Shown: in pieces, positions 37,751 through 63,051 of the stretch
Layout: each line of letters starts with the position of its first letter
Numbering within the stretch: position 1 is the stretch's first letter
Assembly (NCBI GenBank): GCA_046597055.1
Contig: JBKJLC010000222.1
Location: 6,777 to 70,776, forward strand
Source of the DNA: Kofleriaceae bacterium
Lineage (GTDB): Bacteria; Myxococcota_A; Polyangia; Haliangiales; Haliangiaceae
DNA length: 64,000 nt
Direction of reading: 5' to 3'
Made by a program: the position numbers and the translations under genes
The notes under the pieces: generated by a model
Told to the model about the DNA's origin: nothing
The model's input: only the letters and a program-made list of their open reading frames with translations
Database searches by the model: none

Positions 37751-45547
<7,797 letters not shown>

Positions 45548-45760
45548 GATCCCTCTGCGGCGCGGGCGAAGGTCCAGAGCGGGAGCCGCGTCTCGCGCGC
45601 CTCCCTCCGAGGCACGTCCACGCAGTCCCGCAGCTGCCGAATCCGGCTCGGAGCGTAACACCGCGCGCGACGTCGTCACGACGCGGCGGCCGCGAAAACG
45701 CGAGTGACTGCCGCCGGCTTCGCCGGGTGAGAGCCGCACGCACCGTGGTAAGCAAACGCC

Positions 45761-46534
45761 GTGGTGCCGGTCGAACCGCTCGCTGACGTCCTGTACGAAG
45801 ACGCCGAGCTGATCGCGGTGGCCAAGCCCGCGGGAGTCGCGGTCGTGCCCGAGCGCGACGAGGCGGCGACCGCGTGTCTGCGCCACCAGCTGGAGGCCGC
45901 GCGTGGTGAGCCACTGTGGGTGGTCCACCGCATCGACAAGGACACGTCGGGGCTCGTCCTGTTCGCGCGGTCGGCCGCCGCGCACCGGTGGATGAACGAC
46001 GCGTTCGCCGAGCGGCGAGTCGCCAAGCGCTACGTGGCATTCGCAGCCGGCGACCTGCCGGGCGAGCGAAGCGTGGACCTCGTGCTGGTGCCGGCGCGGC
46101 GGGGCAAGGCCCGGCCGGCGGCGGCGGGCGAGGCCGGGGGCAAATCCGCGGTCACGCATCTGCGGGGCGTGCGGCGGTGGCGGCGGGGCGATGATGTGGT
46201 GACGCTGTGCGAGGCGCGGCCCGTCACCGGACGGCATCATCAGATCCGCGTGCACCTGCGCAGCCTGGAGGCGCCGATCCTGTTCGATCCGCTGTACGGG
46301 AAGCGGACGCTGCGCGGGGCTTACGAAGGCGCGCCGGCCGGGCGGCTGGCGTTGCACGCGGAGGCGATCGAGCTGCGGCGGCCTGACGGGCGGGTGCTGT
46401 CGGTGGTCGCGCCGTGGGCGGCGGATCTGATCGCGCTGCGTGGGTGGCTGGATGGGACGTGGACGGAGGTGGGGACGGAGAGGGACGGGGAGATCGGGAC
46501 GGAGATGGCGAACGAGAAAGAGACGAGTTCATGA
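45761..46534 (+). CDS. RluA-family pseudouridine synthase
   Basis: 'LIAVAKPAGVAVVP', 'VHRIDKDTSGLVLFA' (catalytic Asp motif), 'KRYVAF' and 'TGRHHQIRVHL'. A purine-rich low-complexity tail follows. Confidence 0.85.
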   Translation: MVPVEPLADVLYEDAELIAVAKPAGVAVVPERDEAATACLRHQLEAARGEPLWVVHRIDKDTSGLVLFARSAAAHRWMNDAFAERRVAKRYVAFAAGDLPGERSVDLVLVPARRGKARPAAAGEAGGKSAVTHLRGVRRWRRGDDVVTLCEARPVTGRHHQIRVHLRSLEAPILFDPLYGKRTLRGAYEGAPAGRLALHAEAIELRRPDGRVLSVVAPWAADLIALRGWLDGTWTEVGTERDGEIGTEMANEKETSS

Positions 46535-58517: not shown

Positions 58518-58553
58518 GAAGCCCCGCTGGGTGAGCAGCGGGGCTTCTTTCGT
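58518..58553 (+). terminator. Rho-independent terminator
   Basis: GAAGCCCCGCTG-ggtgag-CAGCGGGGCTTC is a 12-bp perfect stem followed by TTTCGTT. It lies about 95 nt after the 55327..58422 stop and just past the 3' end of the minus-strand tRNA-Lys. Confidence 0.65.
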
Positions 58554-58564
58554 TCAGTCCCGGG

Positions 58565-58636
58565 TGAGGGCGGTCAGACTCGAACTGACAACCAGCGGAT
58601 TAAGAGTCCGATGCTCTACCATTGAGCTACGCCCCC
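58565..58636 (-). tRNA. tRNA-Lys (anticodon CTT)
   Basis: The reverse complement GGGGGCGTAGCTCAATGGTAGAGCATCGGACTCTTAATCCGCTGGTTGTCAGTTCGAGTCTGACCGCCCTCA folds as a cloverleaf with a 7-bp acceptor stem, GCTC/GAGC D-stem, anticodon loop CTCTTAA and GTCAG/CTGAC T-stem with TTCGAGT loop. CCA is not encoded. Confidence 0.85.
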
Positions 58637-58678
58637 GGAATTACTTACTTCTTAGTCTAGTCTCGGTACCTTTTCAAG

Positions 58679-58752
58679 TGAGCTCGGGGCGACTCGAACG
58701 CCCGACCTACGGGTTCGAAGCCCGGCGCTCTATCCAACTGAGCTACGAGCCC
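58679..58752 (-). tRNA. tRNA-Arg (anticodon read as TCG)
   Basis: The reverse complement GGGCTCGTAGCTCAGTTGGATAGAGCGCCGGGCTTCGAACCCGTAGGTCGGGCGTTCGAGTCGCCCCGAGCTCA has an Arg-like D-loop AGTTGGATA, anticodon loop CTTCGAA and T-loop TTCGAGT. CCA is not encoded. The anticodon should be confirmed with tRNAscan-SE. Confidence 0.8.
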
Positions 58753-58799: not shown

Positions 58800-59067
58800 G
58801 CGGCGGCCGAAATGATCGTGCCCGCGGCGGCATGGCGCACCCCTCCGTGGGGTAGCGCCTCTGGGGGTCAGCCCCCAGACAAGCGACCTCACGCACGTCT
58901 CCCGGGGGCAAAGTCACCAGGAACACGCGCAGTTTTCAGCCCTTAGGGAGTAAGAACGAGCTTCCAAAAAGCGGTCAGGCCGCATTAGTATTGCCTCGCC
59001 TTGCCGGTGAACGGGGATCGCGTCAGCGACCGCCCCAGGTTCACCGACTACCCGAGGGGGACTATCC

Positions 59068-62000
59068 GTGTTCAGCAAAGACCGCCGCATCAACCTGGTC
59101 CTGTCCCTCTTCTTCTTGCTGCTGAGCGCCTGCGGAGGCCTCGGCAGCGGCTGCGGCTGCACGACGCAGCCGTTGCCGGCCGGCGGCCTTCCCAGCGACC
59201 AGACCATCGAAGGCGGCGGTCAGATCCGGGTGACCCGGGCCGGCTTCGCCAAGCTCACCTCGGTCATCCCCGCGCTGCTCAACGATCAGCTGTCCGACGG
59301 CTTCTGCATCGGGCAGCAGAGCATCCTCGGCGCCAACGTCTGCTACGAGAACCAGGGACCGACCTGCAACCCGGGTTGCCGGGTCAACGTCGCGCTGCAG
59401 GAGACCCGCCTGCAGGTCACCAACGCGCAGACGCTCAACGTCTACATACGCGCCAACATCAGCGTGCCGGTCCGCATCGACCCGCCGATCTTCGGCGCGT
59501 GCACGATGACGGTCACCGCCAACAACCTGTCGGCGGATCTCGATATCGGCTTCGGCATCAACCCGACCACCGGCGAGATGACGCTCCGGCTGAATCGCAT
59601 CAACAGCTACGACCTGTCGGGCGTCAGCTACTCGGGCTGCACCGTCATCAGCTTCCTCGCCTCGCTGGTCACCAGCCTGGCCGGCACCATCCTCGGCGAG
59701 TTCGTGGTCGACCTGCTGACCCCGACGATCAACGATCTCATCCAGGGCTTCCTGCCCAGCCCGCTCGGCATCGAGGGCATGGTCGACGTCGGCGCGCTGC
59801 TCGCGGGCGTGTCGCCCGGCACCGAAGGCTTCATGGAAGCGCGCATGGTCCCAGGCGGATACGTGTCGCTACAGAACAGCGGCATGTCGCTGGGGCTCAT
59901 CACCGGCCTCAACGCCGACCAGGACCCGACCACCCGCACCGCGCAGCTCGACAGCGAGCCGGCCTACTGCGTCCCGCCGATCCCGGCGCCGGACTTCGCG
60001 GCCGCGCCCGCCAGCCTGCCCCGCGTCGCCGGCCGCAACACCTTCACCTTGGCCGCGGCCGAGGAGTTCCTCGGCATGCCCGAGCCGGCCGACGATCTCG
60101 TGATCGGCCTGTCGGAGACGATGCTCGACCTCGCCGGTCACCACCTGGTCACCTCGGGCGGCATGTGCCTCGGCGTCGGCACCTCGCTGATCGCCCAGCT
60201 CAAGCTCGGCACGATCGGCCTGCTGGTCCCGTCGCTCGGCGAGCTCGGCAAGGGCGACGAGCCGCTCTTGCTGGTCACCCGGCCCCAGCGCGCGCTCGAC
60301 TTCACGGTCGGCGAGGGCACCGAGGCGTCGCCCGCGTTCACGATCCACATCAAGGAGTTCGAGGTCGACTTCTACGGCTTCATCTACGAGCGCTACACGC
60401 GCGCGTTCACGATGTCGCTGGACCTCGACGTCGGCGTGAACCTCGAGTTCGTGCAGATGCCGGGCATGCCGGCCCAGGTCAAGCCAGTCCTGGTCGGCCT
60501 GACCTCGTCGAACATCGACATCACGGTGCTCAACAACGAGTTCGTGAAGGAGACCCGCCAGCAGCTCGAGGCGGTGCTGCCGACCGTGTTCGACCTGGCG
60601 CTGCCGCTGCTCGGCGACGGCCTCGGGCCGATCGACGTGCCGTCGTTCGCTGGCTTCACGCTCAACAACCTGCGGGTCCAGAAGGTCGTCACCGCCCAGG
60701 ACGAGTTCGTGGCGATCTACGCGTCGCTGGGCGCGTCGCAGATGATGCGCACCACCGCGGCCGATCAGTATCCGTCGCTCGGCCCGGTGGTCGACCGCCT
60801 CGACCAGGGCGTCGGCATGCCGAGCTGGCCGTCCCGGGTCGAGACCCCGATCGCGAGCCTGCGCTCGGTGGTGGTGCCGACCCCGGCCCAGATCCGCGGC
60901 GCGCTGATGGGCGAGGCCGGCGGCGCGCTGCCGACCGTGACCATCGAGGTCGCGCACCGCGACGACCACGGCCGCGAGCTCGAGTGGAGCTACAACCTCG
61001 ACAACGGCCTGTGGCGCCCGTACTCGTCGGCCACGCCGCTGGTGATCGCCGACCGCGCGTTCGCCTGGCAGGGCCACTACACGATCGGCCTGCACGCCCG
61101 GGTCAAAGGCGACTACCGGACCACCGCGGTCCAGCGGATCGACCTGCCGGTCACGATCGACTCGATGGGCCCGAAGATCCGCGTCGACGAGGCGCGGCTG
61201 ACCGACCGCGGCCTGTACGTGCCGGCCACCGACGCGGTGTACGAGGACGGCCTCGAGTGGGCGTTCGGCACGATCACCTCGGACCAGCCGGTCACCGGCT
61301 GGCAGCCGTCGCCGACCCTGGCTCGCGCCCAGGTCACCGCGCTCGAGACCGACGGCGAGATCCTGGTCTTCGTCCGCGACCCGAGCGGCAACGTCTCGAT
61401 GGCGATCGCCCGCAGCAACTTCCACGGCGCGGCCGGCGAGGGCGGCTGCAGCTGCCGCTCGACCGGCGGGCCCGACACCGGCTCGATCCTGCTGCTGATG
61501 CTGGTCGCCGGCGTCCTGCTGGGGGCGGGGCGGTCGCGCCGCCCTTTTGCGCGGCGCGCGGTCGTCGCCCTCGGGGCGGTCGCGCACAAGGCTAGCCGGA
61601 CCGTGCGGGCGGGCGGGCGCCTGGCGCCGATGCTGGCGGTGTGGGCCGGCCTGAGCCTGGCGCTGTCGATGGTCCCGGGCTGCTCGTGCGGCTCGGCCGC
61701 TGGCCACGCCTGCGAGCTGTCCGAGGACTGCGACGACCTCGAGTGCCCCGAGGGCCAGATCGCGATCTGCTTCGAGGGCGAGTGCCTGTGCACCGACGAC
61801 GTGCCGTACGGCAAGATCGGCCTGATGTCCGACGTCGCGGTGGCGCCCAACGCCGACGTGGTGGTGTCGGCCTACGCCCAGAACCACGGCGACCTGGTGG
61901 TCGCGCGCTTTGCCGGCGCCGGCCGGATCGCCGACGAGGCCTGGGAGTTCGTCGACGGCGTCCCCGACGGCCCGGTCGCCCTGCCCGAGTCCGATGTGCG

Positions 62001-63051
62001 CGGCGGCATCCTCGACCCCGGCCCCGACGTCGGCCTCTACACCTCGGTGGCGATCGGCACCGCCGACGTGCCGATGGTCGCGTACCACGACAAGACGACC
62101 GGCTCGCTCAAGTTCGCGGCGAAGTCCGGGGGCGCCTGGCAGAACCACGTGGTCGATGCCGGCACCGGCACCATCGCCCCCGAGATCGGCGGCGAGCAGG
62201 TCGGGCTCTACAACGCGCTGTCGCTGCGCACCGACGACGGTCGCCCGGCGATCGCGTACCTCGCGATGATCTCGCAGGGCGACGGCCTGGTGGTCGGCGA
62301 GGTCCGCTTCGCCCAGGCCACCAGCGCCTTGCCGGCCGGCTCCACCGACTGGCAGGTGACCGTGATCGACATGATGGCGCTGCCGCCGGTCGACCCGCTG
62401 AGCCCCGACCCGTACCCGATCCCGGCCGGCATCGGCCTGTTCATCGAGATGGCCCGCGACGCCGCCGGCAACCCGGCGATCGTCTACTACGACCGCCAGG
62501 GCGGCAACCTCAAGCTCGCGCGGTGGAGCACGGCCAACAGCCGCTTCGACCTCAGCGTCATTGCCGGCCAGACCGGCGATGACGGCTGGTACCCGTCGAT
62601 CGCCTTCGACGCCCAGGACGTGGCCCACATCGCCTACCAGGGCGCCGACCACGACGACGTCTTCTATCTCAACACCATGTCGAACACGCGCGAGCTGGTC
62701 GACGACGGCTACCGGATCGTCGGCACCACTCCCGAGGGGCTGCCAAAGCCGGAGTTCCACTTCGTCGGCTCCGACACGCAGATCGTGACGACGTCGACCG
62801 GGCCGTACGTGATCTACCAGGACTCGACCAGCCACGAGCTGCTGTACGCGAGCAAGCAGGGTGACGACTGGGTCCCGACGCCCCTGGCCGGCAACGAGAT
62901 GACGTTCCAGGGCGCCTACGGCTTCTATGCGTCCGCGGTCGCCGGCGGCAACGAGGTGGTCGTCTCGACCTGGGTGATCCACCAGCAGCTCGTCGACAAC
63001 TGGGTCGAGGTGTTCCGGATCCCGCTCGGCACCGGCCGCATCCTGGACTGA
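59068..63051 (+). CDS. 1327-aa surface-protein ORF: N-terminal lipoprotein module ending in a MYXO-CTERM tag, continuing in frame into a second lipoprotein-like beta-propeller module
   Basis: GTG at 59068 follows GAGGGGGA. The lipobox is 'LFFLLLSAC'. The MYXO-CTERM-like tag spans aa 792-826. A second signal and lipobox 'MLAVWAGLSLALSMVPGC' starts at nt 61630. The C-terminal part has repeats such as 'VPMVAYHDKTTGSLKFA', 'RPAIAYLAMI', 'NPAIVYYDRQGGNLKLA' and 'VAHIAYQGADHDDVFYL'. This may be two genes. Confidence 0.7.
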   Translation: MFSKDRRINLVLSLFFLLLSACGGLGSGCGCTTQPLPAGGLPSDQTIEGGGQIRVTRAGFAKLTSVIPALLNDQLSDGFCIGQQSILGANVCYENQGPTCNPGCRVNVALQETRLQVTNAQTLNVYIRANISVPVRIDPPIFGACTMTVTANNLSADLDIGFGINPTTGEMTLRLNRINSYDLSGVSYSGCTVISFLASLVTSLAGTILGEFVVDLLTPTINDLIQGFLPSPLGIEGMVDVGALLAGVSPGTEGFMEARMVPGGYVSLQNSGMSLGLITGLNADQDPTTRTAQLDSEPAYCVPPIPAPDFAAAPASLPRVAGRNTFTLAAAEEFLGMPEPADDLVIGLSETMLDLAGHHLVTSGGMCLGVGTSLIAQLKLGTIGLLVPSLGELGKGDEPLLLVTRPQRALDFTVGEGTEASPAFTIHIKEFEVDFYGFIYERYTRAFTMSLDLDVGVNLEFVQMPGMPAQVKPVLVGLTSSNIDITVLNNEFVKETRQQLEAVLPTVFDLALPLLGDGLGPIDVPSFAGFTLNNLRVQKVVTAQDEFVAIYASLGASQMMRTTAADQYPSLGPVVDRLDQGVGMPSWPSRVETPIASLRSVVVPTPAQIRGALMGEAGGALPTVTIEVAHRDDHGRELEWSYNLDNGLWRPYSSATPLVIADRAFAWQGHYTIGLHARVKGDYRTTAVQRIDLPVTIDSMGPKIRVDEARLTDRGLYVPATDAVYEDGLEWAFGTITSDQPVTGWQPSPTLARAQVTALETDGEILVFVRDPSGNVSMAIARSNFHGAAGEGGCSCRSTGGPDTGSILLLMLVAGVLLGAGRSRRPFARRAVVALGAVAHKASRTVRAGGRLAPMLAVWAGLSLALSMVPGCSCGSAAGHACELSEDCDDLECPEGQIAICFEGECLCTDDVPYGKIGLMSDVAVAPNADVVVSAYAQNHGDLVVARFAGAGRIADEAWEFVDGVPDGPVALPESDVRGGILDPGPDVGLYTSVAIGTADVPMVAYHDKTTGSLKFAAKSGGAWQNHVVDAGTGTIAPEIGGEQVGLYNALSLRTDDGRPAIAYLAMISQGDGLVVGEVRFAQATSALPAGSTDWQVTVIDMMALPPVDPLSPDPYPIPAGIGLFIEMARDAAGNPAIVYYDRQGGNLKLARWSTANSRFDLSVIAGQTGDDGWYPSIAFDAQDVAHIAYQGADHDDVFYLNTMSNTRELVDDGYRIVGTTPEGLPKPEFHFVGSDTQIVTTSTGPYVIYQDSTSHELLYASKQGDDWVPTPLAGNEMTFQGAYGFYASAVAGGNEVVVSTWVIHQQLVDNWVEVFRIPLGTGRILD
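61435..61545 (+). other. Internal MYXO-CTERM-type sorting signal
   Basis: 'GEGGCSCRSTGGPDTGSILLLMLVAGVLLGAGRSRRP' combines a Gly/Cys motif, a hydrophobic helix and a basic cluster. That is the hallmark of the myxobacterial C-terminal sorting tag, but it lies at codons ~790-826 of a 1327-codon ORF. Confidence 0.7.

Follow-up and report, generated by a model that had tools for sequence, protein, structure and literature searches.

In this work we discuss an open reading frame (ORF) of 1327 amino acids (aa), found at positions 59068-63051 of a 64,000-nt stretch of DNA from a Kofleriaceae bacterium (assembly GCA_046597055.1, contig JBKJLC010000222.1, positions 6,777 to 70,776), which we will call the window. 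It has a MYXO-CTERM sorting tag in the middle of the protein, followed in the same frame by a signal of lipoprotein type. In the ORF the two genes of an operon are joined by a natural and conserved fusion, whose product is probably a precursor processed into two envelope proteins; we give this explanation a probability of about 0.65. The first gene contributes a lipoprotein whose predicted lipid-binding fold is similar to that of BPI and LBP, with the MYXO-CTERM tag at its C-terminus. The second contributes another lipoprotein, in which a Cys-rich knot precedes a predicted beta-propeller. The features of the ORF are listed in Table 1.

The internal sorting tag and the lipoprotein signals

The tag matches the NCBIfam model TIGR03901 (MYXO-CTERM) in aa 791-825 over its full length (model positions 1-34 of 34). 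The score is 20.7 bits in the whole protein, for a curated cut-off of 20 bits, and 26.4 bits (E 6.5e-6) in an excerpt of 83 aa. The same model is matched by 25 of the 36 family members scanned, at E <= 0.1. A first-pass annotation, made from the letters of the window, had placed the tag at codons 792-826 (nt 61441-61545) and a new start at the ATG in 61630, and both positions are correct. The segment reads GGCSCRSTGG..ILLLMLVAGVLLGAGRSRRP (as a whole GGCSCRSTGGPDTGSILLLMLVAGVLLGAGRSRRP), with the signature G793-C794-S-C796 first, then GSILLLMLVAGVLLGAG and finally RSRR. It ends at aa 826, 501 residues short of the C-terminus.

According to the preprint of Haft, a MYXO-CTERM tag has a Cys-containing signature (generic GCGC), a transmembrane helix with no charged or Pro residues and an Arg cluster; it is restricted to lineages of Myxococcota: Myxococcia, Polyangia and Bradymonadales with MrtP. 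The segment in the window has all three parts. The protein also starts with a signal peptide, of lipoprotein type and ending in L-S-A-C22, and it comes from an appropriate lineage: its nearest relatives are found in metagenome-assembled genomes (MAGs) of Kofleriaceae/Haliangiales, and Kofleriaceae are placed within Polyangia. Among the features that could be tested here, only the terminal position is absent. The first-pass annotation took this position as part of the definition, but there is a published exception, MXAN_5598 (PMC11980579).

Conservation was studied in the 434 relatives which we found in a search of 5.8 billion proteins; all counts given below for the close family come from the best 120, or from the 119 which were aligned. 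All 21 Cys of the protein are near-invariant in the alignment. In the tag G793, C794 and C796 are kept in 118-119 of 119 homologues, and the sequence F785-H786-G787 which precedes helix 1 is also near-invariant. After the second helix P870, G871, C872 and C874 are kept in 117-119 of them: C872 and C874 are always present, while G871 is Gly in 97 cases and Ala in 22. A GCxC form is common to three sites, which are found after the N-terminal lipobox, in the tag and after helix 2 (59149-59160, 61444-61455 and 61678-61689). The alignment shows that each residue which defines a signal is under purifying selection.

In order to define lipoboxes we have used the PROSITE-type pattern (PS51257/PS00013), [LIVMFWSTAG](2)-[LIVMFYSTAGCQ]-[AGS]-C near the N-terminus, with a positive n-region and an h-region. 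The N-terminal signal MFSKDRRINLVLSLFFLLLSAC fits this pattern. Its lipobox, LLLSAC22, was already noticed at first sight; it fits in 112 of 120 close and in 91 of 107 distant relatives, and Cys22 is kept in 113 of 119. The second signal (aa ~827-872) is less clear. The in-frame lipoprotein signal reported by the first-pass annotation does have an Arg-rich loop, a predicted helix, Gly or Ala at position -1 (118 of 118) and the invariant Cys872, but its V-P-G-C site departs from the pattern. Position -2 is Pro in 116 of 118 members of the close family, outside the allowed [LIVMFYSTAGCQ], and 98 of the 118 fail the pattern. Among distant fused relatives, 42 of 59 fit it.

A regular-expression scan of the 64-kb window for ordinary C-terminal MYXO-CTERM proteins gave only off-frame junk and no other tagged ORF.

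Conservation of the fused frame

The best 120 of the 434 relatives have 1272-1363 aa, cover 96-100% of the query and are 48-76% identical to it, with the sole exception of P0083, a fragment of 1080 aa. A public protein, P0001, is 100% identical to the window protein. We also scanned one genome per species and found relatives in 159 genomes; 79 loci were fetched, nearly all of them from MAGs of Kofleriaceae, Haliangiales or Myxococcales. Fused ORFs extend down to about 30% identity.

At 72 of the 79 loci the tag and the second CxC are found in a single stop-free frame. The spacer between them has 20 distinct lengths, from 50 to 87 aa, every one in frame, so that insertions and deletions have all come in multiples of three. 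For an unconstrained spacer the chance of this result would be (1/3)^19, about 9e-10. The third-position G+C (GC3) in the frame of the ORF is 0.92-1.00 across the tag, the loop and helix 2, with 0.92 in the loop; the ORF as a whole has a G+C of 0.66/0.48/0.97 in codon positions 1/2/3. A linker of 28 codons with no stop has a probability of about 0.60 from the base composition of this DNA (73% G+C), and in the other two frames of the ORF the stop-free fraction of 28-codon windows is 0.53-0.94. Since such a linker is likely by chance alone, the case rests on the comparison of genomes. The first-pass annotation had proposed to look for an intervening stop codon in related genomes: there is none at the 72 fused loci. 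Orthologues with the same uninterrupted ORF, which it had named as the observation that would speak against its own proposal, are found instead, and they rule out a recent accident or an error. Genome comparison thus shows the fusion to be, as judged from its relatives, ancient and conserved.

In distant fused relatives (30-38% identity, 1250-1570 aa) the loop has only 0-10 aa. The Arg cluster of the tag (RRR) leads directly into the h-region and a canonical lipobox, as in ...LLLGLRRRRRWSLVLLALLALIGCDDS.

In two long-read assemblies (L043 and L079) the orthologue is found in shorter stop-free segments, of 1158 and 1168 aa, with broken frames. The breaks are probably due to indel errors in homopolymers and not to a true fission. 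The gene is otherwise restricted to Myxococcota, but it is also found in two contigs of 4.0-4.7 kb labelled as an Actinomycetes MAG (L047) and an Acidobacteriota MAG (L051), which are probably mis-binned.

Split and stand-alone relatives

A profile-free search with the N-terminal module (N-module, aa 1-830) in 1.84 billion representatives gave 854 relatives, among them fused proteins with about 1300 aa. About 30 stand-alone N-modules, with 790-960 aa, have a lipoprotein signal at the start and a true terminal MYXO-CTERM at the end. One of them, P0130, ends in ...FHGQAGASGCSCETGG..LALLTLFGMLRSRAHGRHRSRRRR followed by the stop; the terminal tag of another one, P0246, has a TIGR03901 score of 31.7 bits. 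The possible anchoring of the N-module at both ends, which had been considered unusual in the window protein, is a real feature, but it is found throughout the superfamily, stand-alone forms included.

There are also loci in which the two modules are neighbouring genes. In locus L085 the first gene codes for P0246 (840 aa). Its tag ends at a TGA, and one codon further on, in the same frame, we find the ATG of a protein of 520 aa, which opens with the canonical lipoprotein signal MRNLHTPSLLVLATALAGGGC-DC-GSS. This second protein is homologous to the C-terminal module of the window protein from the GC[SD]CGS motif on (E 1e-21); its whole length, signal peptide included, also aligns with aa 889-1346 of P0232, a fused sister, at 44% identity (E 4e-126). 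In this arrangement the fused and split states are one stop codon apart. The heptapeptide AGGGCDC is identical in the tag signature of L085 and in the lipobox of its partner (L085 9400-9600). The shared AGGGCDC/GCxC could fit the published idea of a single enzyme (Lgt) for both sites; alternatively it could correspond to a disulfide or metal cluster.

In locus L088, which belongs to an NCBI genome, the first gene (861 aa) matches the N-module of the window with E 5e-42, roughly in aa 229-742. It ends in ...DGACACALPG..LLLLGLVVGLRTRREVNS and a stop, a terminal tag which is read straight from the translation. The second gene codes for a propeller lipoprotein of 499 aa, which opens with MTRSWHTSTVLFSLGTLLAVAGC-DC. 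The end of the first gene and the start of this one share 4 nt (GTGA) and are read in different frames, a classic layout for translationally coupled genes; the split in L088 cannot be a sequencing artefact. A third pair, P0238 and P0295, is found on one contig, the partner of P0238 being identified indirectly via P0295.

The N-terminal signals of the propeller genes of L085 and L088 align with the internal signal of the fused proteins. Many propeller proteins stand alone (490-560 aa); they have a PROSITE-type lipobox within their first 60 residues in 23 of 35 cases, usually of the form ...[AG]GC-[DS]-C-G. Some stand-alone N-modules have no adjoining partner: the next gene is gpsA-like after P0130, codes for dCTP deaminase after P0155 and for a membrane protein after P0197.

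In a neighbour-joining tree of 105 N-modules the terminal and fused architectures interleave, and the nearest relative of 16 of the 32 terminal-tag proteins is a fused protein. The split operons and this interleaving show that both internal signals have their origin in true terminal signals of two genes of one operon. They also show that fusion and fission have occurred repeatedly, with interconversion of the split and fused states. A tripartite tag in mid-protein, with the two halves present as separate genes in homologues, is what marks a fusion protein of the HVO_0405/MXAN_5598 kind, and here three split pairs are found. The loss of a stop codon between two adjacent genes, one of the explanations offered at first, is right as evolutionary history, as it is apparent in L085, L088 and P0238/P0295. 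It was not right to consider it recent or a sign of pseudogenisation, given more than 119 protein clusters and relatives in 159 genomes.

Folds of the two modules

AlphaFold models were built on an alignment of 71 sequences. The model of aa 23-790 (m06af1895e55a) has a mean predicted local distance difference test (pLDDT) of 90.3 and a predicted template modelling score (pTM) of 0.86; for aa 782-1327 (m13adbec83a74) the values are 87.3 and 0.80. A Foldseek comparison of the N-module with the PDB finds BPI (1bp1, E 2.8e-19, probability 1.00, template modelling score TM(target) 0.59), LBP (4m4d, E 1.4e-17) and CETP (2obd, E 1.2e-14), the last two also with a probability of 1.00. We are confident that the module is predicted to have the two-lobed fold of BPI/LBP/CETP (TULIP), presumably lipid-binding. 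Its sequence gives no hint of it: Pfam has no family at E <= 1 for the whole protein or for either half, LBP_BPI_CETP models included, and a sequence search of the PDB with both modules gave no match at E <= 1.

The N-module family (window 59185-60822) has 854 representatives at 50% clustering, with no Pfam or NCBIfam model and no PDB match at the sequence level. It appears to be a large, unannotated bacterial family with a predicted BPI/LBP-type fold.

The second model has helix 1 (aa 804-819), a loop of low confidence and helix 2 (aa 852-868), after which a knot rich in Cys leads to a beta-propeller. The propeller-like module which had been noticed after the second signal is thus predicted as a propeller by AlphaFold and Foldseek. 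Its closest solved folds are seven-bladed: the PLL/PHL fucose lectins of Photorhabdus (5c9o, E 9.7e-12) and the glycosidase BT3686 (5muk, E 2e-10).

Processing of the precursor and alternative explanations

We propose that the precursor would be exported by Sec through its N-terminal lipoprotein signal. Helix 1 would stop the transfer, the Arg-rich loop would stay in the cytoplasm and helix 2 would restart export. The two internal signals together would form a transmembrane hairpin, in which the Arg cluster of the tag and the loop double as the positive n-region of the second signal peptide. Both modules would then be found outside the inner membrane, as suggested by the positive-inside rule and the published model of MYXO-CTERM. 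A myxosortase-family CPBP protease would cut at the lipidated GCxC of the tag, after the published model of MrtX. The cut would free the BPI-like module, with a lipid anchor at each end (on C22 and on the Cys of the tag), so that it could be moved to the surface. Lgt/LspA would release the propeller module at Cys872 or, in the clade of the window, helix 2 would hold it in place. The helix-loop-helix left over would stay in the membrane. The outcome would be the same two mature proteins of the split operon, with a fixed 1:1 stoichiometry. Such identity of the mature products is expected, since split and fused forms replace each other at short distances. Furthermore the residues which are useful only for processing (the Cys pair of the tag, Gly/Ala at -1 and Cys at +1) are invariant, which argues for processing. 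From this conservation, and by analogy with related systems, cleavage of the precursor is probable in this family.

Several points weigh against this explanation. The score of the tag in the full-length protein is barely over the curated cut-off (20.7 versus 20). In the clade of the window the second lipobox has a Pro at -2, which is barred by the PROSITE pattern, and the second cut is uncertain. A long loop (25-45 aa) and the conservation of W859, G861 and S867 in helix 2 could correspond to a retained anchor instead of a cleaved signal. The conserved Cys could be disulfides or metal ligands instead. The neighbour-joining tree is a rough one, with no support values, and some metagenomic proteins with a terminal tag may be frameshift artefacts, for example P0125 and P0136, which have odd tails. 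Finally, neither the window nor the +/-8 kb around each of the 79 fused loci contains a myxosortase-family gene; we infer the presence of a myxosortase in this genome from its lineage (Polyangia, MYXO-CTERM-positive).

Some of these points lead to an alternative which, on balance, we find unlikely: that the precursor is only half processed. The myxosortase would free the BPI-like module, and in the Kofleriaceae clade the propeller would stay on the helix 1-loop-helix 2 remnant, helix 2 being no substrate of LspA. Given the Pro at -2 and the long loop, the propeller module may indeed stay anchored by its helix in this clade. The Pro is found in 116 of 118 members of the close family, whereas distant fused and split relatives have canonical lipoboxes; the clade of the window also has a longer loop and a conserved helix 2. 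However the invariance of Gly/Ala at -1 (118 of 118) and of Cys at +1 (119 of 119) is hard to square with a loss of lipidation and cleavage.

It is somewhat less likely still that the hairpin is not cleaved at all. The product would be a single polytopic protein of the inner membrane with two periplasmic domains, and the GCxC motifs would be disulfides or a metal site. Three symmetric and near-invariant GCxC motifs, one at every membrane-proximal position, would suit such a protein, as would the conserved residues of helix 2, the non-canonical Pro of the window clade and the marginal score of the tag. On the other hand, close relatives are two separate proteins with their own terminal signals, and the two states interconvert over short distances. 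An uncleaved hairpin would also trap the BPI-like module in the inner membrane, whereas its stand-alone form is predicted to reach the surface. Neither the length nor the sequence of the loop is conserved, with only 0-10 aa left in distant fused forms, and in the sole case tested, HVO_0405, an internal tripartite tag is cleaved.

An internal start, as suggested by the first-pass annotation, appears improbable. The second module would be initiated at the ATG in 61630 while the first one reads through. This codon (Met855) is placed just ahead of helix 2, alternative GTG or TTG starts would be compatible with the sequence, and separate starts are used in the split relatives L085 and L088. But Met855 is found in only 15 of 119 relatives, in which Thr is the commonest residue at this position, and there is no promoter-like site within the gene. 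Furthermore, no stop ends the first module at any of the 72 loci, so that the full-length fusion would still be made. An artefact, either a stop or an indel missed in assembly or a recent pseudogenising read-through, has a negligible probability: a stop-free linker is expected in about 60% of cases by chance and frames are broken in L043 and L079, but 72 loci from independent assemblies and over 119 protein clusters have the same unbroken frame, each of the 20 lengths of its linker is divisible by three, GC3 is continuous over the junction, both modules are 40-76% conserved and the Cys are invariant, so that the assembly or sequencing error considered at first can be discarded.

The explanation which we prefer, a fused operon whose product is processed, can be taken further only as a speculation, which is rather unlikely to hold in full. 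Two intramembrane enzymes, a myxosortase at GC794xC and Lgt/LspA at GC872xC, would act on one hairpin. They would give a doubly lipid-anchored BPI-like lipid-transfer protein and a lectin-like propeller lipoprotein. These might act as a 1:1 surface complex which recognises and handles glycolipids, either of its own envelope or of that of prey, a bacterial counterpart of LBP/BPI. If this were true, the family would provide direct evidence for Lgt as the enzyme, long sought, which lipidates MYXO-CTERM, given the shared GCxC (AGGGCDC at both sites of L085).

Features of the locus and genomic context

Table 1 Position of the features of the fused gene and of its surroundings in the window
Feature	Position	Strand	Description or evidence
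Fused ORF, complete	59068..63051	+	1327 aa; start GTG, stop TGA
Lipoprotein signal, N-terminal, aa 1-22	59068..59133	+	n-region K4/R6/R7, h-region, lipobox L-S-A-C22
First juxtamembrane motif G-C29-G-C31, just past the lipobox Cys	59149..59160	+	C29 and C31 kept in 113/119
Two-lobed BPI/LBP/CETP-like (TULIP) lipid-binding fold, predicted, approx. aa 40-585	59185..60822	+	AlphaFold and Foldseek
Beta-sandwich (FN3/Ig-like) domains, predicted, approx. aa 596-782	60853..61413	+	All-beta in model residues 574-760; Foldseek FN3/Ig matches
Internal MYXO-CTERM-type tripartite tag, aa 791-826	61438..61545	+	TIGR03901, conservation, predicted helix
Tag signature G793-C794-S-C796	61444..61455	+	Part of the internal MYXO-CTERM-type tag
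Tag helix 1, aa 804-819	61477..61524	+	AlphaFold prediction
Tag Arg cluster R822-R825	61531..61542	+	Part of the internal MYXO-CTERM-type tag
Arg-rich loop, poorly conserved, presumably cytoplasmic, aa 827-851	61546..61620	+	Low pLDDT
Helix 2 (hydrophobic, aa 852-868) followed by V-P-G-C872-S-C874; internal lipoprotein-type signal with non-canonical -2 Pro	61621..61689	+	AlphaFold and conservation
Met855 codon ATG	61630	+	Read from the ORF
Cys872 codon	61681-61683	+	Read from the ORF
Cys-rich mini-domain, C872/874/882/888/893/901/906/908	61681..61791	+	All eight Cys invariant, 119/119
Beta-propeller, predicted, approx. aa 898-1319	61759..63024	+	AlphaFold and Foldseek; seven blades expected from the nearest solved structures
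Alpha/beta-hydrolase (aa ~103-356) + AMP-binding (acyl/aryl-CoA ligase-type) fusion, 1031 aa	55327-58422	+	Upstream of the fused gene
Terminator-like hairpins	58518-58547, 58971-58983	+	
tRNA-Lys(CTT), tRNA-Arg(TCG)	58563-58636 and 58678-58752	-	Flanked by the ligase gene and the fused gene

The genes around the fused gene are unrelated to it. The hydrolase-ligase gene of 1031 aa is found upstream in about 10 of the 79 related loci. Downstream of the fused gene in the window is phoU, and a PhoU or AMP-ligase gene is present in 8-10 of the 79. Synteny is only partial, so that the neighbours are uninformative on function. An Rfam search over the window gave only the two tRNAs, and a scan for promoters and terminators found no promoter-like site or terminator inside the fused gene.

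An antisense ORF (59869..62982, - strand, 1037 codons) covers most of the gene. We consider it an artefact of high G+C, the + frame having a GC3 of 0.97. In another part of the window (37751-46528, - strand) there is a giant ORF of about 2925 aa, strongly coding by its GC3 of 0.94, with only scattered matches to TPR.

A myxosortase-family CPBP protease gene was found in locus L082 (6045-6848, - strand), with a match of 139 bits to Mrt_core (NF040914, cut-off 100 bits) and MrtP as best specific model. It adjoins divergently the gene of the stand-alone N-module P0197 (7001-9436, + strand). There may be a dedicated pairing of enzyme and substrate in some lineages. In the locus of P0163 a PF02517 gene is found 3.6 kb from the gene of the stand-alone N-module.

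Comparison with known systems

The closest precedent in Myxococcota is MXAN_5598 of M. xanthus, which has an internal MYXO-CTERM. In the passages of Guo, Haft and Wall (mBio 2025, PMC11980579) considered here it is read as a fusion of two envelope genes, comparable to a joined TraA and TraB, and its N-terminal part is proposed to be still processed and anchored at the surface. The window protein is similar in having the motif in mid-protein and in being a fusion of two genes. The partners are different: an adhesin with an outer membrane beta-barrel/OmpA in MXAN_5598, a BPI-like lipoprotein with a propeller lipoprotein in our case. MXAN_5598 is the subject of a short mention in the Discussion of that paper, with no comparative or experimental support, and is set beside the window protein by its description only. 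To this precedent the family of the window adds relatives in 159 species genomes, split operons and a signal after the tag which is of lipoprotein type.

A fusion protein with a central signal is also found in Archaea. HVO_0405 of Haloferax volcanii has a tripartite signal of PGF-CTERM type, and its cleavage by the archaeosortase ArtA, which depends on lipidation, has been shown by experiment (Abdul Halim et al., J Bacteriol 2017, as cited in PMC11980579; PMC7157517). It has in common with the window protein an internal tripartite signal in a fusion protein, which in HVO_0405 is cut by its cognate enzyme. It differs by its archaeal origin, its PGF-CTERM tag, the Cys protease involved (an archaeosortase) and its export by Tat, whereas the tag in the window is of MYXO-CTERM type. 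The fusion in HVO_0405 is described as strain-specific, with no second lipoprotein signal in that description, whereas the fusion in the window is old and widespread.

For canonical MYXO-CTERM proteins, the same passages of Guo, Haft and Wall (PMC11980579) report that cleavage of the tag by MrtX depends on its Cys, in E. coli as well, and that the C-terminal FLAG of TraA-FLAG is lost upon co-expression of MrtX. They propose an Lgt-like lipidation first, followed by transport through the type II secretion system. The window protein shares with TraA and other canonical members of this system the GCxC signature, an uncharged helix with no Pro, the Arg cluster, the signal peptide and the lineage (Myxococcota, Polyangia). 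The stand-alone relatives of its N-module, in which the tag is terminal, are ordinary members of the system. In contrast, the tag of the window protein is 501 residues away from the C-terminus and its N-terminal signal is of lipoprotein type, so that a lipid anchor is predicted at both ends.

With BPI, LBP and CETP (TULIP) the similarity is in the predicted two-lobed boomerang of aa ~40-585. The window protein differs in being bacterial, anchored as a lipoprotein, followed by beta-sandwich domains and with no Pfam or PDB match at the sequence level; its lipid binding is a prediction only. A search of the literature on internal lipoboxes and lipoprotein polyproteins gave nothing relevant.

The family has several implications. 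A sorting tag called C-terminal can last under selection in mid-protein over long evolutionary time; as internal tags persist, annotation rules or hidden Markov model post-filters which accept the tag only at the end of a protein will overlook these proteins or label them wrongly. Its members are natural substrates with a large size shift if cut, about 85 + 50 kDa, as HVO_0405 is in archaeosortase research. With them one could test whether myxosortases cut internal tags, whether lipidation must come before the cut and whether it is Lgt that adds the lipid. The repeated interconversion of split and fused forms is also strong genomic evidence that the BPI-like and propeller lipoproteins work together.

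The window protein is thus a further case of a fusion with an internal tag, and it belongs to another family, which appears to be undescribed. No new principle is involved, as internal tags are already on record in MXAN_5598 and HVO_0405. What is new is the conservation among relatives in 159 species genomes, the split counterparts verified in the DNA, the recurrent interconversion, a lipoprotein signal which shares the Arg cluster of the tag, and the BPI-like fold.

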